Source of the DNA: Sphingobacteriales bacterium
GTDB taxonomy: Bacteria; Bacteroidota; Bacteroidia; Chitinophagales; JADIYW01
Length of the DNA stretch: 64,000 bases
NCBI GenBank assembly: GCA_947460245.1
Contig: CANHGL010000002.1
Coordinates: 3,588 to 67,587 of the forward strand
Reading direction: 5' to 3'
How positions within the stretch are numbered: the stretch's first letter is position 1; each line of letters starts with the position of its first letter. The position numbers were made by a program, and so were the translations under genes. The notes beneath the pieces were generated by a model, which did not search any database, was not told the DNA's origin, and saw only the letters and a list, made by a program, of their open reading frames with translations. Below, one piece after another: positions 6,388 through 44,126 of the stretch.

Positions 6388-6921
6388 ATGATAACAGAAC
6401 AACCTATAAAATTTTCGCCGGAAGCTTTAGCTAAAGCTCAGGAGATGATGAAACGTTACCCGGAAGGGAAATCAAAATCTGCTTTGATACCGATTTTACA
6501 TTTGGCTCAGGCAGAATTTGATGGATGGCTTAGCGCTCCGGTTATGGATCATGTAGCATCCATTATGGGTATTGAGCCTATTGAAGTTTATGAGGTGGCA
6601 TCTTTCTATTCGATGTTTAACCTTAAACCTGTCGCAAAATATTTAATTGAAGTGTGCCATACCAGCTCTTGTTGGTTGTGCGGTGCAGAAGATATCGTTC
6701 GATATCTGGAAAAAAAGCTGCAGGTAGAAACGGGTCATATTTCTGCGGATGGAATGTTTCAGATAAAACTCGTAGAATGCCTTGGTTCCTGTGGTACAGC
6801 ACCCATGTTCCAGATTGGAGAACAGTATTATGAACATCTGACATTTGAAAAGATAGATACGATTCTGGAAGATTTACGGAAGGAAAACAAACGAAGTAAA
6901 TACGTTCACCTGAACCAATAA
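6388..6921 (+). CDS. nuoE: NADH-quinone oxidoreductase subunit E (2Fe-2S)
   Basis: 177 aa. The Cys pattern (CHTSSCWLCG ... CLGSCGTAP) is typical of the 24-kDa subunit. Confidence 0.9.
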   Translation: MITEQPIKFSPEALAKAQEMMKRYPEGKSKSALIPILHLAQAEFDGWLSAPVMDHVASIMGIEPIEVYEVASFYSMFNLKPVAKYLIEVCHTSSCWLCGAEDIVRYLEKKLQVETGHISADGMFQIKLVECLGSCGTAPMFQIGEQYYEHLTFEKIDTILEDLRKENKRSKYVHLNQ

Positions 6922-35511: not shown

Positions 35512-36744
35512 ATGCTTATTACCAACATCCGCTATTTAGTAAATGTAAGAGAAGAAAATAATTTACTTCGGGGTAAGGCTTTGGCTGATCTTCCGATATT
35601 AGAGAATGCATGGTTGAAAATTGAAAATAATTCTATCGTAGATTATGGCTTGATCTCTTCCTTACAAGAAGCTGATTTTAAACAGAAAGTATTTGATGCC
35701 AAGCAAGCAGTTGTTTTGCCCTCTTGGTGTGATAGTCATACGCACCTTGTGTTCGCAGGCAGTAGAGAAGGAGAGTTTGTAGATAAAATCAGAGGCCTTA
35801 CTTATGAGGCCATAGCAGCAAAGGGTGGTGGTATATTAAATTCTGCAAAGTTACTGAAGGAGACTTCTGAGGAGGTGTTATTGGAGCTGGCTCAGCAAAG
35901 AATAGACCATCTGATACAATTAGGAACGGGGGCGTTGGAGATTAAAAGCGGATATGGATTATCTGTGGATGGGGAGTTGAAGATGTTGCGGGTAATTCAA
36001 CAACTTAAACACCAAAATAATATTCCTATAAAGTCAACTTTCCTTGGAGCACATGCATTTCCTGAAAGCTATAAGTCTAATCGAAAAGGATATATTGAAT
36101 TACTAAAACTTGAAATGTTGCCTAAGATTGCCAGTGAACATCTTGCGGATTATATAGATGTATTTTGTGAGGAAGGTTTCTTTACACAGCAGGAAACAGA
36201 GGAGTTGTGCGAACTGGGTAAGTCATTTGGAATAACCCCAAAAATACACGCCAATCAGTTACATATTTCCGGTGGGGTTCAGGCGGGATGTAAGGTAAGG
36301 GCATTGTCTGTAGATCATTTAGAGACTATAGGAGAAGAAGAAATTCGTTTGCTTGGAGAAGCTAATGCGCCAATTGCTACCTTATTACCAGGTGCTGCTT
36401 TCTTTTTGAGAATGCAATATCCTCCAGTAAAAAAACTAATAGAAAATAATGCGGCTATAGCTATTGCCAGCGATTATAATCCTGGTTCATCTCCATCGGG
36501 AAATATGAATTTTATGATAGCATTGGCTTGCACACAGATGCGTATGTTGCCGGAGGAAGCTATTAATGCTGCTACTATTAACGGTGCTTATGCTATGGGC
36601 GTAGAATCGCTCGTTGGTAGTATTACTCGTGGAAAACGGGCAAACCTTATTTTTACTCAAGCGATTCCTTCCATAGCCTATCTGCCTTATAGTTATGCAT
36701 CTAACCTTATCGATAAGGTGATGATTAACGGACAGTTTCAGTAA
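35512..36744 (+). CDS. hutI: Imidazolonepropionase
   Basis: 410-aa amidohydrolase with metal ligands (CDSHTHLVF, KIHANQL, ASDYNPGSSP). Confidence 0.95.
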   Translation: MLITNIRYLVNVREENNLLRGKALADLPILENAWLKIENNSIVDYGLISSLQEADFKQKVFDAKQAVVLPSWCDSHTHLVFAGSREGEFVDKIRGLTYEAIAAKGGGILNSAKLLKETSEEVLLELAQQRIDHLIQLGTGALEIKSGYGLSVDGELKMLRVIQQLKHQNNIPIKSTFLGAHAFPESYKSNRKGYIELLKLEMLPKIASEHLADYIDVFCEEGFFTQQETEELCELGKSFGITPKIHANQLHISGGVQAGCKVRALSVDHLETIGEEEIRLLGEANAPIATLLPGAAFFLRMQYPPVKKLIENNAAIAIASDYNPGSSPSGNMNFMIALACTQMRMLPEEAINAATINGAYAMGVESLVGSITRGKRANLIFTQAIPSIAYLPYSYASNLIDKVMINGQFQ

Positions 36745-36747
36745 TTT

Positions 36748-36882
36748 TTACCATTCTACTTGTATGCCACCACCATCAGGCGTAGTATGAACCGACCAAT
36801 CTAGTTTCATTTCTAGACGTTGTTCGAGTTCCTCGATGTTAAATGCTTCGTGTAGTTGTTCTTCTTTTTCTTGTGTTTTCAT
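36748..36882 (-). CDS. Candidate RiPP-type precursor peptide A (44 aa): MKTQEKEEQLHEAFNIEELEQRLEMKLDWSVHTTPDGGGIQVEW
   Basis: ATG-initiated ORF 2 nt downstream of the 652-aa gene stop, on the same strand. It is below the ORF-track size cutoff. It shares the block EELEQRLEMKLDW with the 51-aa ORF at 41198-41353; the 39-nt block differs only at 4 synonymous third positions. Confidence 0.7.
   Translation of the reverse strand: MKTQEKEEQLHEAFNIEELEQRLEMKLDWSVHTTPDGGGIQVEW
36796..36834 (-). repeat. Conserved 39-nt leader block, copy A (encodes EELEQRLEMKLDW)
   Basis: 35 of 39 nt are identical to 41261-41299. The differences are gaa/gag, cgt/cgc, cta/ctg and cta/ctg, all synonymous. Confidence 0.9.
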
Positions 36883-36884
36883 AA

Positions 36885-38843
36885 TTAATGTTTTAAGGTT
36901 AAAAATCTATTTAGTGCACTTATTACAGTGCTTGTGGTGATTATTCTGTGCAAATCTTCTATCAGTACATTTTCACCAATATCTGTTTTCTTCCATTCTG
37001 TTATGTCTTCAGGGTTTATGCAATCAGAGGCTGGAATTCTTAGCGCATAACTGGAGTCCCAGGATCCATCTGTGTTTTGTCTGTTTATTAATGCTATTGC
37101 TGATTTTTTCAGTAGGTGATACTGATCAGATGACCATTCTTTGTAATGAGATAAAGCTTTTAAGGTCATTGCAGTATATAGGATATGTTCATTACTGAAT
37201 GCATCTTTACATAAACCATTGTCCTGGATTTGTTCAAATAATAATTCAGCAGTTGATTGACATATTCTTTGCAATTCAGGATGTTGTAAGTTTTTATTGG
37301 CTTCCAAGAGGAGTGTACTGCTATATATCGGACTGGTCCACCAATAGGACTCAAATAACTGATTTGCTTTGTATTTTTTTAGGAAATAGGCTATTAATTT
37401 ATTTTTCTCTTGGGTATAGCCATCAAACTTAGATAACAACAAGAGTGTACCTGCACTTACACACAGGTGACTTTGTGTCCATCCATTAATGTTTTTTTTT
37501 TTAGGATCGTTAAGGTGATTGAGGAGTATCGTCCTATTGTTATATGTGGTAATTCCTCCATCATTTTGTTGGTAGCTTAGCACTGCATTTATTACTTCTT
37601 CTGATTTATATTGCGAGATTAAACCAAGTAGGCTGAAATTACTTGAGTCCGCATCTTCTACCCATCCTTCTATGTAGGGCCATAATATATTTTTTTTCTG
37701 ATGGAGATATTCGATTGCCTTTGGAATTATATTATTTGTTCTATGATTTTCAAACTCCTCCAGTTGATAGAGTACATATCCTGTTGTCCAGTAACCACTA
37801 AGCCATCCATTTACTGGGGAGTCTCTCCATGCACCATTACGCTCTTGTTCTTTTTGGATAAAGTTCAATCCCGATTTTATTTGCTGTAGAATACTTTTTT
37901 TTGCTGTTGGCTCATCTGCTATTTTTATTTTTTCAATAGAGCGTTTGTTTTTTATTTTTATTGATTCCAGATAAAATTCAACCTGAGTTAATACTTGTCT
38001 TATCTCTGTGATTTTCATTTCTATTACTAATTTCCATAAAGTACAGTTAATCTCTGAGCAAATCTCTGCTGCCTGAGCAAGATAGCTGATAGATTGGTTT
38101 AGTAATTTTACAGCATATCCATTTACAAACATTTTTTTCTGCAGATGCTCAATGGGTTTATTGATTAAGAGTTTATTCTTTTTTAGAAGCGTACTTAATG
38201 CAAAATTTGTCTGTTTGTTATTGTAATCTACATTCAAATCAAACAGGTCGTCATAGCATTGTAGCCCACATGAAAACAGTCTATGGGATTTTAGCAATTT
38301 TTGGTGATTATTTAAGCTGATTTTATTGAGCGTGAATAGGGAGTCTATTGCAATTTTTCCAAATGCTGATTTCCGATCAGCCAAGTTCTCAAATTCACTT
38401 TTTTTGAGGTCAAGAATAAATTGCTTGTCCGTGTAGTAAGCACTCAAATACGCTTTTTTTCTTTCTTGCCAGTATCCCCAGAATCTTTGATTATCCTGAA
38501 AAATAGAGGAGAGTATCTTTATACTTTCTTCATGATACCAATTGGATAAAATTATTTCATGTATCCTGTCTGGGTTGTCATTCTTAGTATCTAATTTTTT
38601 ATCAAGAATTAGTAAGTATTTGAAATAGAAGTATCCGGAAATATTTATTTGATTAATTTCTTTATCTCTTTTCTCAGTAAATAAAGATCCATAGCAAAAG
38701 TAAAATAGATTAGGTTCACTATTGATTTCTTTAAAGAGTAATTCTTTAATATTGCAATCTATATTTTGCTTCTTTATGTACGTTAACAGAATCTGTCGCG
38801 ATGCTTCTATATGTTTGTAGATATTATCTTTTAACATTTCCAT
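36885..38843 (-). CDS. Two-domain isoprenoid-type enzyme: N-terminal polyprenyl-synthase/ComQ-like helical region fused to a prenyltransferase/squalene-cyclase-repeat (alpha/alpha toroid) domain
   Basis: 652 aa. The N-terminal half is all-helical and carries Asp-rich motifs YLLILDKKLDTKND and FSCGLQCYDDLFD (compare the FPPS SARM GxxFQxxDDxxD). The C-terminal half has four repeats of the Q-x-x-D-G-x-W type: ERNGAWRD, QQNDGGIT, QDNGLCKD and QNTDGSWD. The function is inferred from motifs only. Confidence 0.55.
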   Translation of the reverse strand: MEMLKDNIYKHIEASRQILLTYIKKQNIDCNIKELLFKEINSEPNLFYFCYGSLFTEKRDKEINQINISGYFYFKYLLILDKKLDTKNDNPDRIHEIILSNWYHEESIKILSSIFQDNQRFWGYWQERKKAYLSAYYTDKQFILDLKKSEFENLADRKSAFGKIAIDSLFTLNKISLNNHQKLLKSHRLFSCGLQCYDDLFDLNVDYNNKQTNFALSTLLKKNKLLINKPIEHLQKKMFVNGYAVKLLNQSISYLAQAAEICSEINCTLWKLVIEMKITEIRQVLTQVEFYLESIKIKNKRSIEKIKIADEPTAKKSILQQIKSGLNFIQKEQERNGAWRDSPVNGWLSGYWTTGYVLYQLEEFENHRTNNIIPKAIEYLHQKKNILWPYIEGWVEDADSSNFSLLGLISQYKSEEVINAVLSYQQNDGGITTYNNRTILLNHLNDPKKKNINGWTQSHLCVSAGTLLLLSKFDGYTQEKNKLIAYFLKKYKANQLFESYWWTSPIYSSTLLLEANKNLQHPELQRICQSTAELLFEQIQDNGLCKDAFSNEHILYTAMTLKALSHYKEWSSDQYHLLKKSAIALINRQNTDGSWDSSYALRIPASDCINPEDITEWKKTDIGENVLIEDLHRIITTSTVISALNRFLTLKH

Positions 38844-39990
38844 ATCGTTTATTCTTTATCAGTTTTATTAATATATGAATAGTGTATCTTGCTAAAACGA
38901 TGCATAGCAATATTGTCTTTATTATATCTTGAATATTTAGAGCTGTACATTTGTCTAGTGTACCAGTGCCATAGGCTATGATATTATATAGTAATAGATT
39001 TTTGTGAATTAATAGGAAATACAAGAGATATACTAAAGCTCCTTTATTAAGTATATAATAAGCGCTTAATAATGTATTTTTTGTACTCCTCAGTTTCTTG
39101 CTAAAAAATTGAATTAAAGCCTCTTCAGAACTATTATGTAAGTTTCGATAGGAACATAAGTCATTTAATATCCAATATCCATCAGATTTGAATATTGGGA
39201 TGAGATTAAAAGTGCATTTCAATAACAGTAGTAATGCGATTGAATATGTATCGTTAAGAGATAAAAAACATCCTGTGCAGTAAGTGGAGCATAAAAACAA
39301 CGCTTCAAAATATACACCTGATATATTGACTATAATTCTTTCTCTTTTATTTAATAACCAAATTCCGGAAACATCTGAGAATGCTACTGGTATAATACCC
39401 ATGTATATTCCTATTCCTATTCCTTTGCTTTTTATACAGTAATTCCGACAAGCAGTGATATGTCCAATTTCATGTAGTAAAGTTGATCCAGTAATTAAGC
39501 AGAAATAAATCGGAATTTGATGGATGTTTATTGGGTGTATGGTCTTAGGGATGTGTAATAAATAAAATAATGTTAAAATCAAAAGTATTAGAAATACAGA
39601 TATTCCATTTCTTTTATAAAATATGGTTAAGTGTTGTATGAGAAAATTAATTTTTTCTGAGGGTATAAGGGTTGTTGCCTTCTTAATATAATTAGTTTGT
39701 GTATTTTGCTTAGTTGATTGGTCTTTATCGTTTAGTATCTTATTACCTAATTGGTTGTAAATGATATGCTTTACTTTTTCGATGCTAATATTGCGTTGGT
39801 GAATGCTGTTATAAGTATCTCGTATAGTTTTAATGCTGTTATTCCCATTAATTAAATTTATGAGAGGTAATACATTTTCAGATATACTAAGATGAAAGCT
39901 GTGCCTATTATCGAATACAATAGCTCCGTATTCCTTGTGTTGTTGGATTTTTATATCCGATCTTAGTATAGGTATCATATCTTCATACAT
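38824..39990 (-). CDS. Peptidase M50 (site-2-protease-like) membrane metalloprotease with N-terminal PqqD/RRE-like domain
   Basis: 388 aa. It has HExxH inside a TM segment (STLLHEIGHITA) and the downstream M50 motif NLIPIFKSDGYWILNDL. The N-terminal ~70 aa (IPILRSDIKIQQHKEYGAIVFDNRHSFHLSISENVLPLINLINGNNSIKTIRDTY) fits the PqqD-like peptide-binding pattern. It overlaps the next gene by 20 nt. Confidence 0.7.
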   Translation of the reverse strand: MYEDMIPILRSDIKIQQHKEYGAIVFDNRHSFHLSISENVLPLINLINGNNSIKTIRDTYNSIHQRNISIEKVKHIIYNQLGNKILNDKDQSTKQNTQTNYIKKATTLIPSEKINFLIQHLTIFYKRNGISVFLILLILTLFYLLHIPKTIHPINIHQIPIYFCLITGSTLLHEIGHITACRNYCIKSKGIGIGIYMGIIPVAFSDVSGIWLLNKRERIIVNISGVYFEALFLCSTYCTGCFLSLNDTYSIALLLLLKCTFNLIPIFKSDGYWILNDLCSYRNLHNSSEEALIQFFSKKLRSTKNTLLSAYYILNKGALVYLLYFLLIHKNLLLYNIIAYGTGTLDKCTALNIQDIIKTILLCIVLARYTIHILIKLIKNKRYGNVKR

Positions 39991-40004
39991 ATAGATAGTT
40001 TAGC

Positions 40005-41144
40005 TTATTTATAAAAATCGATAGAAGGTGTTTCTGGTATTTCGGGTTGGGAATTAATCGTTATTGATTTAAATTTTTTAAGTTGATTGTATATTGGCTG
40101 ACTCAGATCTGCGTATGCTGTTTTAGGTATTTTTAGCTTATTATCCTCTGAAATAGAGCTGGACTGAAAGATAGATTTGGCTTCAAAAGCAATTTTCTCA
40201 TTTTGAGTAGAATATTCTATTTCCATGCTGGACTTTATAGCATGTAAATACCACTTTCCTTTATAAGGCCTGAAGGATATATAAGTATTAGAAGAGATTC
40301 TTTTTTTGCTGATGAATCCACAAGTGTCATTTTTTAATAGCGTAGGCGTTTCGTTGTATTTGTTTTCGCGGAATAAACCTATAACAGCTTTTGATTGCTG
40401 GTCAATAAATAAAATAGTTTTTTGTTTGCCTTCGAGGTATAATTTATAAATCTTATAATTTCCAATGATGCTTTCAGATATATTGTATTCTTTTACCTGA
40501 TCTATGTTTTCGAGTAGAGTGCATAAAGAAGGATATAAATTACTATAGTTAAAAAGAGTATAATAAGATACATATTGTCGGTTGCTATATTTTCCATGGT
40601 TTGAATATTTTATAATATTTTTTGGAATGAATTTATTTTGTTTTCCTGAGATTGATTTTAGTGTAAAGTAATTACAGAGTTCGCCTTCACTCAGTGTTGC
40701 GCTAATAATTTGATTTTGATGTAAAATATACTCATTATAGATGCAGTTTATTTTTAATGGAGTAATACTATAATTGTTAGAGTAATTTTCTATTATTTGT
40801 TTTAAAAGTTCTTTAGGTGTTATGGATAGTATTTTTATTTCATTCAATTCATAAGCATAGGGTATTAGTTCTATATTTTTCATATCTAAGAGTTGAGTAG
40901 TAGTTATTTTTCTTGACTCGTATCCAATACTGCTAAAGACTATTGTGTCATTTGGATCGCAATCATCTATTTTAAACCTGCCATCTTTATCTGTTGTAGT
41001 TCCTGTGTTTTTTTTAACAGCGTAAATATTTACTTCAGAGAGTTTACTGTTATTTTTAGTTTGTATTACAATACCAGATATGGTAAGTGTATAGCTGTAT
41101 ATAGTTATTAGCAAAGCAATAGCTGCTAGCATAGATTTTTTCAT
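40005..41144 (-). CDS. Secreted CarboxypepD_reg-like domain protein of unknown function
   Basis: Signal or anchor MKKSMLAAIALLITIYS, then a CarboxypepD_reg-like fold signature (GIVIQTKNNSKLSEVNIYAVKKNTGTTTDKDGRFKI...IVFSSIGYESRKI). About 270 aa of beta-rich sequence with no recognised motif follow. The ORF-track N-terminal extension to 41264 overlaps precursor B and is not signal-like. Confidence 0.7.
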   Translation of the reverse strand: MKKSMLAAIALLITIYSYTLTISGIVIQTKNNSKLSEVNIYAVKKNTGTTTDKDGRFKIDDCDPNDTIVFSSIGYESRKITTTQLLDMKNIELIPYAYELNEIKILSITPKELLKQIIENYSNNYSITPLKINCIYNEYILHQNQIISATLSEGELCNYFTLKSISGKQNKFIPKNIIKYSNHGKYSNRQYVSYYTLFNYSNLYPSLCTLLENIDQVKEYNISESIIGNYKIYKLYLEGKQKTILFIDQQSKAVIGLFRENKYNETPTLLKNDTCGFISKKRISSNTYISFRPYKGKWYLHAIKSSMEIEYSTQNEKIAFEAKSIFQSSSISEDNKLKIPKTAYADLSQPIYNQLKKFKSITINSQPEIPETPSIDFYK

Positions 41145-41197
41145 AGTAAATACATTAAATAGGGCACACCGAGATTGACGGTGTGCCCATTGAGAAA

Positions 41198-41353
41198 TTA
41201 AGGATAGATGGGAACATTGTAGTTGCCATCTGTCAGAATAATCTGAGGCTGACTGGGCGCCCAATCCAGTTTCATTTCCAGGCGTTGCTCGAGTTCCTCT
41301 ACATGGAACTCATCCAGAAGATAGTCTTCCGGTCTTTCGGTTTTTTCTTTCAT
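41198..41353 (-). CDS. Candidate RiPP-type precursor peptide B (51 aa): MKEKTERPEDYLLDEFHVEELEQRLEMKLDWAPSQPQIILTDGNYNVPIYP
   Basis: ATG-initiated ORF 53 nt upstream of the CarboxypepD_reg-like gene, on the same strand. It shares the leader block with peptide A and has a divergent Cys-free C-terminal region. Confidence 0.7.
   Translation of the reverse strand: MKEKTERPEDYLLDEFHVEELEQRLEMKLDWAPSQPQIILTDGNYNVPIYP
41261..41299 (-). repeat. Conserved 39-nt leader block, copy B (encodes EELEQRLEMKLDW)
   Basis: See 36796-36834. Only synonymous differences separate the copies. Confidence 0.9.
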
Positions 41354-41442
41354 TGCATAATAGTTTTAATAAGCTTACTCTGTTTGTACTTATTTTGTAT
41401 ATTTGCAATACAACAAAACAATGGTTACCAAATCCGTTTTGT

Positions 41443-41471
41443 AAGCCGTCATTTTTAATGATGGCTTTTTT
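41443..41471 (+). terminator. Plus-strand intrinsic-terminator-like hairpin in the upstream region of the peptide operon
   Basis: AAGCCGTCAT-TTTTA-ATGATGGCTT forms a 10-bp stem with one G-U pair, followed by a T-run. On the minus strand the wobble becomes an A-C mismatch and no U-run follows. Confidence 0.45.
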
Positions 41472-41810
41472 GCTGTAATGCATTCTATACCTAATATTAT
41501 AGGTTTTTCAGCATTCACCTAATTCAAGTTAAAAAATTCGGTCCGGACCTACTTTTGCAGAAACTTGAACTAAACTGCAATTCAAACTTAGGGAGGTATT
41601 TAGACAATTCAATTTCAGTTAAACGGATTTTATAACTTAATAAAGCATAATAATTATTTTTGTATAATTATAAATTAAACAAAATCAATATTTTATATTT
41701 TAAATAAAGTGTTATAAAGTAACAATTATTTTATTCATTTATATATTCTTTAACGTAATGTTTATTCTATTTTAAGTGTTTAATAATTAATATTTTAATT
41801 ATTATATACT

Positions 41811-41835
41811 TAAAATATTGTGATTCAATATTTTA
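41811..41835. promoter_or_regulatory. Perfect 10-bp inverted repeat, candidate operator (TAAAATATTG-TGATT-CAATATTTTA)
   Basis: Seen directly in the AT-rich divergent intergenic region. A third CAATATTTTA half-site lies at 41686-41695 and an AATATTTTA at 41789-41797. Confidence 0.35.
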
Positions 41836-41913
41836 ATATAATATTTTGGACATATTCTAATATTATTATTTGTACAAATTGTGTTTTTCGGATGTACTTA
41901 GTGCATAATAAAC

Positions 41914-41921
41914 TAATTTTG
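41914..41921 (+). promoter_or_regulatory. Candidate -7 box (TAATTTTG) upstream of the CDP-alcohol phosphatidyltransferase gene
   Basis: Matches TAnnTTTG 9 nt before the ATG at 41930, which would imply a very short or absent leader. Confidence 0.3.
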
Positions 41922-41929
41922 CGTTGCCT

Positions 41930-42622
41930 ATGGAAAATATCACTACAGAAGAAAAGAAGGTTTTTACAGATAGGAAACGAACTAACATACTAAGAAATTT
42001 AGAACAACCCGTTCTTGTTTTTTTATGTAGAATTTTACCTCGTTTCATAACTCCGGATATGCTTACAGCAACTGGTATATTGGGTTCTTTCATGGTTTTA
42101 TTAGGATTCCTAATAGCTCGTACACCTGAATTAAAAGGATTTCTTTTTTTATCAATTTTTGGATTTGCAGTGAACTGGTTCGGAGATTCTATGGATGGAC
42201 GCATTGCATACTTTAGAGAAACTCCAAGAAAATGGTATGGTTTTGCCTTGGATTGTATGATGGATTGGATGTCATTGGTGACTATAGGTATTGGCTACTA
42301 TTTTTATGTTCAGGGAGACTTTAGAATTTATGTATTTACCTTTTGTTGTGCGTATGCTTGGGCTATGCTCGTGGCTCAGATTAGGTATAAGATTACCAAT
42401 GTATATTCTATAGATTCCGGACTATTGGGCCCAACAGAGGTAAGAGTAATTATTTGTTTAGTTATCCTATCTGAATATCTATGGAGTGGTTCTATGGAGC
42501 TGTTTTCTATAGTGGTGAACATAATACTCATATTAACAAATACTATTGATACGGTTAAGTTGATAAAACTTGGTGATGAACGCGATATAAGCGAACGAAA
42601 ACAGAAGGAGGCAAGTCTGTAA
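41930..42622 (+). CDS. CDP-alcohol phosphatidyltransferase family membrane protein
   Basis: About 230 aa, polytopic. Motif region DSMDGRIAYFRETPRKWYGFALDCMMD resembles D-G-x2-A-R-x8-G-x3-D-x3-D with one extra residue. The ORF track begins at TTG 41924. Confidence 0.75.
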   Translation: MENITTEEKKVFTDRKRTNILRNLEQPVLVFLCRILPRFITPDMLTATGILGSFMVLLGFLIARTPELKGFLFLSIFGFAVNWFGDSMDGRIAYFRETPRKWYGFALDCMMDWMSLVTIGIGYYFYVQGDFRIYVFTFCCAYAWAMLVAQIRYKITNVYSIDSGLLGPTEVRVIICLVILSEYLWSGSMELFSIVVNIILILTNTIDTVKLIKLGDERDISERKQKEASL

Positions 42623-43035
42623 TGAAATTTAATCTAGAATTTAATACATTGGTTAAGGCACAGATTTCTGCATTTATTGGGGGAGTCTTTGATTATGCAG
42701 TTATGATTGCTTGTACTGAGTTACTTGCCATCTATTATGCCCGATCAATTGTAATAAGTGGTCTTCTAGGAGCCTTGGTTAACTTTACTATTAATCGCTA
42801 TTGGACATATAATTCCAATGAGCGGGGGCTCTCAGCTCAACTTACTAAGTTTTACCTGGTTGTCTTAGGGAGTATTTTACTTAAGTCTTACGGCACATAC
42901 TATGTTACAGAGGCCTTTTCTATGGATTATAGAATAACACGTTTGCTAGTTGATCTTTTTGTTTCGATTGGATTCAACTTTGTACTTCAGAAGTATTGGG
43001 TATTTCGAAAGGAGGATGTTTTACAAGCTGATTAG
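42622..43035 (+). CDS. GtrA-like family membrane protein
   Basis: 137 aa with four TM segments and GtrA-type termini (FIGGVFDYAVM..., FNFVLQKYWVFRK). Its start overlaps the upstream stop (TAATG). Confidence 0.8.
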   Translation: MKFNLEFNTLVKAQISAFIGGVFDYAVMIACTELLAIYYARSIVISGLLGALVNFTINRYWTYNSNERGLSAQLTKFYLVVLGSILLKSYGTYYVTEAFSMDYRITRLLVDLFVSIGFNFVLQKYWVFRKEDVLQAD

Positions 43036-43097
43036 CTGCTATATTTTCAGTTGTTATTTTCTTGCTTCTTTTTTGTGCTATTTAATATCTTTACTCC

Positions 43098-44126
43098 ATG
43101 CAAAATTTCATTTTTTATCAAAAGGAAAACTTTCTAGCCTTCACTAAAACAAGACAAGGTGAAAATAAATTAGGGCAGACCATACAGGCTGTTTCTAATG
43201 TTAAAAAATGGAAACAAGAGTTAAAGAGTTCTTCATCTAAGTTTGTTTTAGTAGGTATTCCAGAAGATATAGGTGTTAAGGCTAATTATGGGGTAGGAGG
43301 TGCGCATACCGCCTGGCCTTCTTTTCTTAATGCTTTTTTCAATATTCAGCAAAATCGTTTTTTGGATGGGAAAAGTATAATGCTCTTAGGTTATTTTGAT
43401 TTTTCTTCTCTGCACCTCAAGGCACAGAATAAATCAATAGAATATGTCAGAGATTTAGTGAGCGAAATAGATAAAGAGGTTACAGCTATTGTCCAGGAAA
43501 TTGTTGCGTGTGGTAAAGTTCCAATTATTATTGGGGGAGGCCATAATAACGCATATGGTAATATAAAAGGTGCAGCCCTTGGTTTGCACAGTCTGGGCAA
43601 AGTAAAAGCTAAATCTATAAATGTATTGAACCTTGATGCGCATGCAGATTTGCGTGCGCTGGAAGGTAGGCATTCAGGCAATGCTTTTTCTTACGCTATG
43701 GAGGATGGTTTTCTCAAGAAGTATGGAATGTTAGGTCTGCATGAAAGTTATATTACCGCTGAGATGGATAAGAAGATTTCTCAAAATAAACAGTTAAAAG
43801 CTATATTTTTTGAAGATATTTTTATTCGAAAAATTACTGGATATGAAGAGGCTATAGAGCAGTTATTGACTTTTACTAAGGATACCTATACGGGTATAGA
43901 GGTAGATTTAGATGTAATTGAACAAGTCTTGAGCAGCGCGCTTAGTCCTACAGGCTTGCAAACAATAGATGCAAGAAGATTTATCCATTTGGCGGCAAAA
44001 AGAGGTAAGGTTGCTTATCTACACATATGTGAAGGCGCTGCACAGTTGGACAACGGAATATCCTCCAGCACGACAGGTAAGCTGATAGCTTATTTAGTAA
44101 GTGATTTTATTAAGGCGATAAAGTAA
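43098..44126 (+). CDS. hutG: Formimidoylglutamase (arginase/ureohydrolase fold)
   Basis: 342 aa with Mn-ligand motifs IIGGGHNNAYG, LNLDAHADLR and GIEVDLDV. The assignment to the hut pathway comes from proximity to hutHUI. The family call is firmer than the substrate call. Confidence 0.65.
   Translation: MQNFIFYQKENFLAFTKTRQGENKLGQTIQAVSNVKKWKQELKSSSSKFVLVGIPEDIGVKANYGVGGAHTAWPSFLNAFFNIQQNRFLDGKSIMLLGYFDFSSLHLKAQNKSIEYVRDLVSEIDKEVTAIVQEIVACGKVPIIIGGGHNNAYGNIKGAALGLHSLGKVKAKSINVLNLDAHADLRALEGRHSGNAFSYAMEDGFLKKYGMLGLHESYITAEMDKKISQNKQLKAIFFEDIFIRKITGYEEAIEQLLTFTKDTYTGIEVDLDVIEQVLSSALSPTGLQTIDARRFIHLAAKRGKVAYLHICEGAAQLDNGISSSTTGKLIAYLVSDFIKAIK

Follow-up and report, generated by a model that had tools for sequence, protein, structure and literature searches.

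To our knowledge, ribosomally synthesised peptides with post-translational modifications (RiPPs) carrying cyclised terpenoid groups were first reported in 2024, and few of their pathways have been characterised. In a 2026 review of peptide prenylation, ChrPC is described as a P domain resembling the isoprenyl diphosphate synthases of the trans type (trans-IDS) fused to a C domain resembling the terpene cyclase MstE (PMC13290415). The P domain uses C10-C20 donors to prenylate a Trp located inside a ribosomal peptide, and the prenyl group is cyclised by the C domain (PMC13290415, where the primary reference given for ChrPC is Hubrich et al., Chem 10:3224, 2024). The trans-IDS-like Trp prenyltransferases ComQ, PalQ, the P domain of ChrPC and the related Ord1 have in common a Gln directly upstream of the second Asp-rich motif (SARM), which has been implicated in indole recognition (PMC13290415). 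Here we analyse a stretch of 64,000 nucleotides (nt) from an uncultured Chitinophagales bacterium, referred to as the window, to which all positions apply, and in particular a small open reading frame (ORF) on its minus strand, at 41198..41353, whose product we call peptide B.

The minus-strand operon that contains this ORF encodes, in order, peptide B, an RNA hairpin, a secreted CarbopepD_reg protein, an M50-like protease, a fusion enzyme of 652 amino acids (aa) and a second small peptide, peptide A. The data reported below make it likely that peptide B is the first gene of a ChrPC-type RiPP operon, with the maturation mechanism that we propose. The cluster adds an example to a kind of system first described in 2024 and does not constitute a new principle. 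A sequence-only reading of this DNA had proposed the small ORF as a real gene, and this part of its interpretation stood; its expectation that annotation would miss the gene did not, and the kind of peptide system was not recognised in it.

Peptide B and its precursor family

The mechanical ORF list gives for 41198..41353(-) an ATG start and 51 codons with the translation MKEKTERPEDYLLDEFHVEELEQRLEMKLDWAPSQPQIILTDGNYNVPIYP, identical to the hand translation made in the sequence-only reading. The peptide consists of a variable N-terminus (residues 1-15), a leader box (F16-H-V-E-E-L-E-Q-R-L-E-M27), the segment K-L-D-W31 and the core tail APSQPQIILTDGNYNVPIYP. W31 is the sole Trp of the peptide, its predicted prenylation site and the presumed acceptor of the prenyl group. 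Peptides A and B share 13 consecutive identical residues, EELEQRLEMKLDW, and this identity in the leader is far beyond chance. When a leader profile was compared with all six-frame stop-to-stop segments of the window, only peptides B and A matched (E = 7e-12 and 2e-10, respectively), and the next-best segment had E > 4.

The conservation of the leader was followed in 43 genome loci and 80 metagenome loci obtained through an alignment of the enzyme family, plus loci from exact-protein look-ups; a single-sequence scan of genome contigs with the 652-aa enzyme gave no match, whereas the alignment-based scans did find loci. The leader profile detected 151 small ORFs in 103 of 128 sources, 149 of them on the strand of the enzyme, which extends to the whole family the conserved leader that the sequence-only reading had claimed. 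The consensus reads F-x-V-E-E-L-E-x-R-(L/F/Y)-E-M, followed by one to four residues, a Trp and a tail that is hypervariable and 24 aa long at the median. In 124 of 134 unique peptides, the leader box is followed by a Trp within six residues, and the usual spacing between EM and Trp is one or two residues (Trp 2-3 residues after 'EM', 119/134). Beyond the leader box, this Trp is the only conserved residue in otherwise hypervariable tails. Judged by its sequence, peptide B has the features expected of a RiPP precursor: it is a small ORF co-oriented with adjacent maturase genes, and it has a conserved leader, a variable core and a frame kept in orthologous loci.

A profile of the two window peptides was also searched against 1.84 billion representative proteins and returned 23 hits. 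The ortholog of peptide B, P0040 (MENNFQKQEEQMLEQFRIEELEQRLEMKLDWSPSGAQIGVTDGNSYVPIYP, 51 aa), is 59% identical to it, with 78% positives and no gaps. It is encoded directly upstream of a CarbopepD_reg gene in a Joint Genome Institute (JGI) metagenome contig whose synteny with the window spans 11 genes, and in which the fusion enzyme and the CarbopepD_reg protein are 48% and 43% identical to those of the window. Conservation of the peptide frame in homologous loci, on which the sequence-only reading had let its proposal depend, is thus observed in a syntenic locus with a peptide of the same length. Conservation between peptide B and P0040 covers the leader box and the core (W-x-PS-xx-QI-xx-TDGN-xx-VPIYP), and the N-terminal 15 residues have diverged. 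P0041 is the ortholog of peptide A, and its core differs by one residue. In peptides A and B and in their orthologs, the Trp stands four residues after 'EM' (EMK[LHVM]DW). The tail of peptide A ends in ...VEW, like many Phe/Trp-terminated tails of the family, and that of peptide B ends in ...VPIYP, a subtype common to P0040, P0043 (...VYP) and P0046 (...IVP).

The presence of two precursors in one operon, together with an ending that differs from the F/W-terminated tails common in the family, could point to peptide B as a paralog of peptide A that is decaying or serves as a decoy and has lost its processing. The arrangement of the genes argues otherwise. The commonest order in the family is precursor-CPD-PC-M50 (39 loci plus close variants; CPD, CarbopepD_reg protein; PC, prenyltransferase-cyclase) and the order in the window is precursor-CPD-M50-PC-precursor; therefore, it is peptide B, not peptide A, that holds the canonical precursor position. 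Furthermore, the core of peptide B is kept in P0040, endings of the (I/V)(Y/V)P type are also present in P0043 and P0046, and the leader box and Trp of peptide B are intact, all of which makes this reading very improbable.

A different doubt concerns whether the small ORF is translated at all, since two overlapping ORFs, both pointed out in the sequence-only reading, exist mechanically in the ORF list. One, a TTG-started 419-aa form of the CarbopepD_reg protein (40005..41264, -), shares 67 nt with the peptide gene and is read in a different frame; the second is a GTG-started antisense ORF of 91 aa (41183..41458, +), whose end coincides with a + strand terminator-like hairpin (41443..41467). 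Either of them might be the real gene. The evidence on the start of the CarbopepD_reg protein is at odds with the first. The Met at 41144 opens the signal-peptide-like sequence MKKSMLAAIALLITIYSYTLTISG, as had been noticed from the sequence alone, and homologous CarbopepD_reg proteins start directly with the signal peptide. The distance from the start to the signature T[ND]xxGxF in homologs has a median of 50 residues (interquartile range 48-55, maximum 83, n = 62). In the window protein this distance is 50 residues from 41144, equal to the family median, vs 90 from the TTG at 41264, so that by this test the 419-aa form is longer than every homolog. The public gene call is 375 aa, with gene callers placing the start at 41132, and the true start of this protein is either 41144 or 41132.

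Public gene calls provided independent information on the same question. The exact 51-aa and 44-aa sequences of peptides B and A are present in a collection of 15 billion predicted proteins from NCBI, ENA and Logan assemblies, whose entries may originate from depositor annotation or from uniform re-prediction. In a Logan contig with the identical sequence, gene calling gave the 51-aa gene and, after it, the 375-aa CarbopepD_reg gene from window position 41132 (P0035), and the JGI pipeline calls the ortholog of peptide B as a 'hypothetical protein'. On the contrary, the 419-aa form, the antisense 91-aa ORF and two other small ORFs of the upstream spacer are all absent from the 15-billion collection and have no Pfam match. 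A word-indexed protein search with the 51-aa peptide as query retrieved no other sequence, since short queries are defeated by the word index and by the size of the database, and the literature yielded nothing useful on the leader sequence. In public data the gene of peptide B has already been called, as has that of peptide A, with neither name nor function; the expectation of the sequence-only reading that automated annotation would probably miss it was therefore not borne out.

Altogether, the 51-codon ORF is a genuine gene, and both the 419-aa TTG extension and the ORF of 91 aa on the opposite strand are artefacts of the six-frame translation, as the sequence-only reading had held. This conclusion follows from the conservation of the leader next to homologous enzymes across the family; from the same-length ortholog at the same position in the syntenic contig, where the frame is kept although the flanking proteins are only 43-48% identical; from the fit of the CarbopepD_reg protein starting at 41144 to the start distance of its family, for which the 419-aa form is too long; from the hairpin of -21 kcal/mol that falls inside the supposed 40-aa extension, which would moreover precede the signal peptide; and from the public gene calls, which hold the 51-aa sequence and not the two competing forms. 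The alternative of an untranslated small ORF is effectively refuted, and we assign it almost no weight.

The fusion enzyme and the proposed maturation mechanism

The 652-aa enzyme is encoded at 36885..38843 (-) and matched a squalene-hopene cyclase (SHC) C-terminal domain. Its AlphaFold2 (AF2) model, built from an alignment of 23 sequences, has a mean pLDDT (predicted local distance difference test) of 89 and a predicted template-modelling (TM) score (pTM) of 0.79, and comprises an N-terminal P domain and a C-terminal C domain. Foldseek aligned the P domain with octaprenyl/polyprenyl diphosphate synthases at a TM score of ~0.7. Two motifs are present in this domain, D81-xxx-D85 and Q195-xx-D198-D199-xx-D202-xxx-D206. 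The second Asp-rich motif reads Q195-C-Y-D198-D199-L-F-D202, and its residues Q195, D198, D199 and D202 are found in 76/76 homologs. In the alignment of these 76 non-redundant homologs, the residues D81, D85, K158, Q195, D198, D199, D202, D206, N213 and D397 are invariant.

Residues 308-643, in the C domain, matched MstE with E = 2e-41 in a PDB profile search and with E = 3e-14 in Foldseek (TM 0.83-0.88 on target). With the PDB chain numbering of MstE calibrated on the R337A mutant chain, the catalytic D109 of MstE aligns with D399 in E-D397-A-D399-S, opposite the D-A-D-T of MstE. D397 is present in 76 of the 76 homologs and D399 in 75. The fourth position of the cyclase motif (residue 400) is S in 41/76 homologs, including the window enzyme, and D in 32/76. 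The family is split along this position into 41 DxDS members with an MstE-like C domain and 32 DxDD members with an SHC-like C domain, the P domains being alignable across both groups. To the second group belongs the homolog of Chryseobacterium defluvii (L045), which has the same two-domain architecture, a P domain 31% identical to that of the window enzyme, a cyclase domain of SHC type with D-I-D-D, and flanking leader-bearing precursors. The sub-branch of the window enzyme is rare: among 5.8 billion clusters, a word-indexed search brought up only 29 relatives, the nearest of them 48-51% identical.

The existence and conservation of the peptide B gene, the joint presence of the leader/Trp motif and this enzyme family, the two folds and the conserved catalytic residues are shown by the data. 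The P domain is predicted to be a Trp prenyltransferase and the C domain is predicted to cyclise the attached prenyl chain. Regarding the protease, its best NCBIfam matches are RiPP maturation proteases (daptide_HExxH, 1e-21; YydH/LiaK, 3e-18). It is related to the daptide MpaP-like and YydH/LiaK proteases without being a member of either equivalog, and it is a putative leader peptidase.

We propose that the leader box FxVEELExRLEM would dock the peptide to the 652-aa bifunctional maturase, whose P domain would then use a prenyl diphosphate to place a C10-C20 prenyl group on the conserved Trp31. The C domain would protonate the distal double bond, with D399 as general acid, and would form a polycyclic terpenoid by cyclising the chain. 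Removal of the leader, during or before export, may fall to the M50-like intramembrane protease, and the hairpin 3' of the peptide B gene may keep the precursor mRNA above the mRNAs of the enzymes. Other known kinds of peptide modification were considered and rejected: a lanthipeptide/LanC system, suggested by the toroid fold of the enzyme, since Cys is absent from peptides A and B and the toroid domain has its matches among terpene cyclases and not with LanC, and CaaX-type Cys prenylation, since neither peptide offers a Cys.

It could also be that the precursor is genuine and the enzyme does something other than prenylate Trp and cyclise the chain, for instance that another residue is modified, that a free terpenoid is attached otherwise, or that an inactive cyclase domain serves as a peptide-binding scaffold. 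Trp prenylation and cyclisation are the chemistry that we infer for this locus, the motif corresponding to the first Asp-rich motif (FARM) has a non-canonical DxxxD form, and radical SAM or other enzymes are added in some loci. In addition, R337 of MstE, a target of mutagenesis in the deposited MstE structures, falls in an insertion that is absent from the window enzyme and, therefore, substrate binding differs. Nevertheless, we regard such a departure as unlikely, given that the cyclase Asp pair and the Gln-DDxxD signature (PMC13290415) are invariant or nearly so in the 76 homologs, that Trp is the sole core-proximal residue conserved across hypervariable tails, and that the same architecture has been shown experimentally to prenylate Trp and cyclise the product in ChrPC.

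Prenylation of W31 followed by cyclisation is thus the maturation that we favour, and several points have to be weighed against it. Membership of the ChrPC family is based on architecture, motifs and substrate signature, not on direct alignment with ChrPC or ChrA. The P domain has no significant sequence match to solved prenyltransferases in the PDB profile search (best E = 0.95), and its first Asp-rich motif, D81-K-K-L-D85, is a DxxxD and not a canonical DDxxD/DDxxxxD, although it is invariant in 76/76 homologs and lies at the expected position. The MKLDW spacing of peptides A and B is found in only 1 of 134 unique tails, though their orthologs share it. The protease scores below the curated cut-offs of NCBIfam, with 77.6 vs 300 bits for daptide_HExxH and 66.4 vs 225 bits for LiaK. 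Finally, we infer the modification, the length of the prenyl chain, the site of leader cleavage and what the protease, the CarbopepD_reg protein and the hairpin each do.

Organisation of the operon and variation in the family

The features of the operon are listed in Table 1.

Table 1. Positions of the operon features in the 64,000-nt window, with the evidence for each
Feature	Position	Strand	Evidence
Peptide B, 51-aa precursor	41198..41353	-	ORF list, leader profile, ortholog, public gene calls, canonical position
Stem-loop, 10 bp (8 G-C pairs), 7-nt loop, then TATTTAATGT	41162..41188	-	Terminator scan, folding
Secreted protein, 379 aa (375 aa from ATG 41132): signal peptide, CarbopepD_reg, ~280 residues	40005..41144	-	Pfam PF13715 2e-14
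Polytopic M50-like intramembrane metalloprotease, HExxH (HEIGH), 388 aa	38824..39990	-	Pfam Peptidase_M50 5.5e-6
P domain of the fusion enzyme, residues ~1-300, all-helical trans-isoprenyl diphosphate synthase fold	37944..38843	-	AF2, Foldseek, motifs
C domain of the fusion enzyme, residues ~308-652, MstE-like monodomain class II terpene cyclase	36885..37922	-	PDB profile search, Foldseek
Peptide A, second precursor, 44 aa, same leader box and Trp, core SVHTTPDGGGIQVEW	36748..36882	-	ORF list, leader profile E = 2e-10
Candidate Bacteroidota-type promoter, TTG-N19-TAAGTTTG	41583..41612	-	Consensus match only

The operon is flanked by hutI (35512..36744, +) and by a block with CDP-alcohol phosphatidyltransferase, GtrA and arginase-family genes (41924..44126, +). 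The ThrRS encoded in the window shares 88-89% identity with that of two uncultured Chitinophagales MAGs and about 70% with the Chitinophagaceae, which places the source among uncultured members of the Chitinophagales (phylum Bacteroidota). The ATG of peptide A lies 2 nt past the stop codon of the fusion enzyme. Across the loci, the same-strand partners of precursors are the ~630-aa enzyme (95 loci), the M50-like protease (84) and the CarbopepD_reg protein, which is on the strand of the enzyme in 81 loci and constitutes a conserved partner. For the ~280 residues after its CarbopepD_reg domain, neither Pfam nor NCBIfam gave a match, and these residues diverge rapidly. The window protein has only 4 relatives at E <= 1e-5 among 5.8 billion clusters, and the AF2 model obtained from a 4-sequence alignment (pLDDT 43.6) is unusable.

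The stem-loop is located between the stop codon of peptide B and the CarbopepD_reg gene. It folds with -21.1 kcal/mol (z = -5.25), and 0 of 200 shuffled sequences were as stable. Stable structures at this place are a property of the family: the 60 nt downstream of precursors had a median minimum free energy of -15.3 kcal/mol vs -6.35 kcal/mol in upstream controls (Mann-Whitney p = 6e-13), and z < -2 was found in 62% of the precursor-downstream segments vs 14% of the controls. The element is likely a partial terminator or an mRNA-stabilising hairpin.

The candidate promoter lies ~230 nt upstream of the ATG of peptide B, on the correct strand, in an intergenic region of 570 nt; composites of this type occur only 4 times in the 128 kb of strand of the window. 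A scan for sigma-70 promoters found 27 vs 32 expected from shuffles, no better than chance, as expected because the host belongs to the Bacteroidota. No Rfam family exceeded its threshold in 36600-42000. The DUF805b cis-regulatory motif gave a sub-threshold match at 41488-41521 (-), with 22.5 bits (E = 0.005) vs a gathering threshold of 35.6; situated ~135-170 nt upstream of the ATG of peptide B on the same strand, it is probably due to chance. The + strand terminator-like hairpin at 41443-41467, with 11 pairs and a T-run, falls inside the putative 5' untranslated region of peptide B and has no + strand gene upstream of it within the operon.

The precursors of other loci showed further variation. 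Arrays of 4-6 tandem precursors with near-identical leaders and different cores were found in some loci (L013, L062, L082, L009 and L045); the four precursors of L062, for example, end in ...CWITNV, ...CWITDL, ...CWHILD and ...CWEINF. These arrays look like core diversification through gene duplication. Another locus, L003, contains at 6668-6748 (+) a leader-only ORF of 26 aa (MKQPNEEALLDAFKIEELKARLETVR, followed by a stop) upstream of a full-length PC gene. It has no M50 or CarbopepD_reg neighbours and carries an Rce1-like CPBP protease upstream, and may be a decaying or rewired cluster. In the variant cluster of L004 (1-11570), genes for a TonB-dependent receptor, DUF4249, an M50-like protease, DUF2807 and a radical SAM enzyme come before the PC gene, and a gene for DXP synthase, which is involved in isoprenoid precursor supply, comes directly after it.

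With regard to the tails, 38 of the 134 unique ones end in Phe and 6 in Trp (44 together), and F and W make up ~7.7% of tail residues. Many tails resemble amphipathic beta-strands ending in F/W, such as ...GTVRVEF, ...VGASHKF and the ...GIQVEW of peptide A. The F/W-ended tails are reminiscent of the beta-signals of outer-membrane proteins; the subtype of peptide B ends in (I/V)(Y/V)P instead.

Significance and comparison with known systems

The locus, which belongs to an uncultured member of the Chitinophagales, represents a compact and complete example and has two precursors. The comparison of loci yields a precursor signature that can be put to use, FxVEELExR[LFY]EM-x(1-4)-W with a hairpin after it, along with a conserved four-gene cassette. 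Signature and cassette can both serve to annotate more than 100 nameless small ORFs and guide the choice of candidates for heterologous expression, and their value is in genome mining and annotation. A more speculative idea, which we hold to be rather improbable, is that the Bacteroidota cassette of precursor, secreted CarbopepD_reg protein, PC maturase and M50 protease forms a distinct, widespread and functionally unexplored branch, and that its peptides, capped with terpenoids, act at the outer membrane. It draws on the many F/W-ended tails that resemble beta-signals and on the invariant signal-peptide partner, in which the N-terminal domain is similar to those of SusC and BamP. If it were true, the products would be membrane-anchored mimics of the beta-signal, for example BAM-directed antibiotics, or self-directed envelope lipopeptides, and peptide B with its ...VPIYP end would represent a separate specificity class.

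Among the systems used for comparison, NctPC of the cyanobacterial proteusin (steromaze) pathway likewise has prenyltransferase and cyclase fused in one enzyme, which attaches a geranylgeranyl chain to a Trp of a RiPP and cyclises it. However, the P domain of NctPC is an ABBA barrel and not an all-helical trans-IDS, and its precursor is a large proteusin, whereas the precursor in the window has ~50 aa. ComQ, which acts on the Bacillus quorum-sensing pheromone ComX, and PalQ resemble the window system in that an all-helical trans-IDS-like enzyme with a conserved Gln prenylates the Trp of a ribosomal peptide (PMC13290415). In contrast to the window enzyme, they lack a terpene cyclase domain, and their products are linear geranyl/farnesyl derivatives with a 6/5/5 tricyclic Trp. 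The window enzyme had no sequence-level match to ComQ/PalQ in the Pfam and NCBIfam scans. As for MstE, which takes part in merosterolic acid biosynthesis (PDB 6sbb-6sbg), the C domain is a clear homolog in which D109 is conserved as D399. MstE differs in being a stand-alone enzyme with a prenylated benzoate as substrate, while the substrate in the window is predicted to be a prenylated peptide, and R337 of MstE has no counterpart in the window enzyme.

The comparison with ChrPC reveals differences in the enzyme, which belongs to a rare sub-branch and has a DxDS rather than a DxDD cyclase motif, and also in the locus, with its precursor-CPD-M50-PC-precursor order in place of the common one and the MKLDW spacing of its Trp. 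On the other hand, the window maturase is also a single polypeptide with an N-terminal trans-IDS-like and a C-terminal MstE-like domain, its precursor is a ribosomal peptide with an internal Trp, and the Gln-SARM signature is present in the enzyme. A Bacteroidota host is plausibly shared as well, because a Chryseobacterium homolog of the same architecture is in the family.

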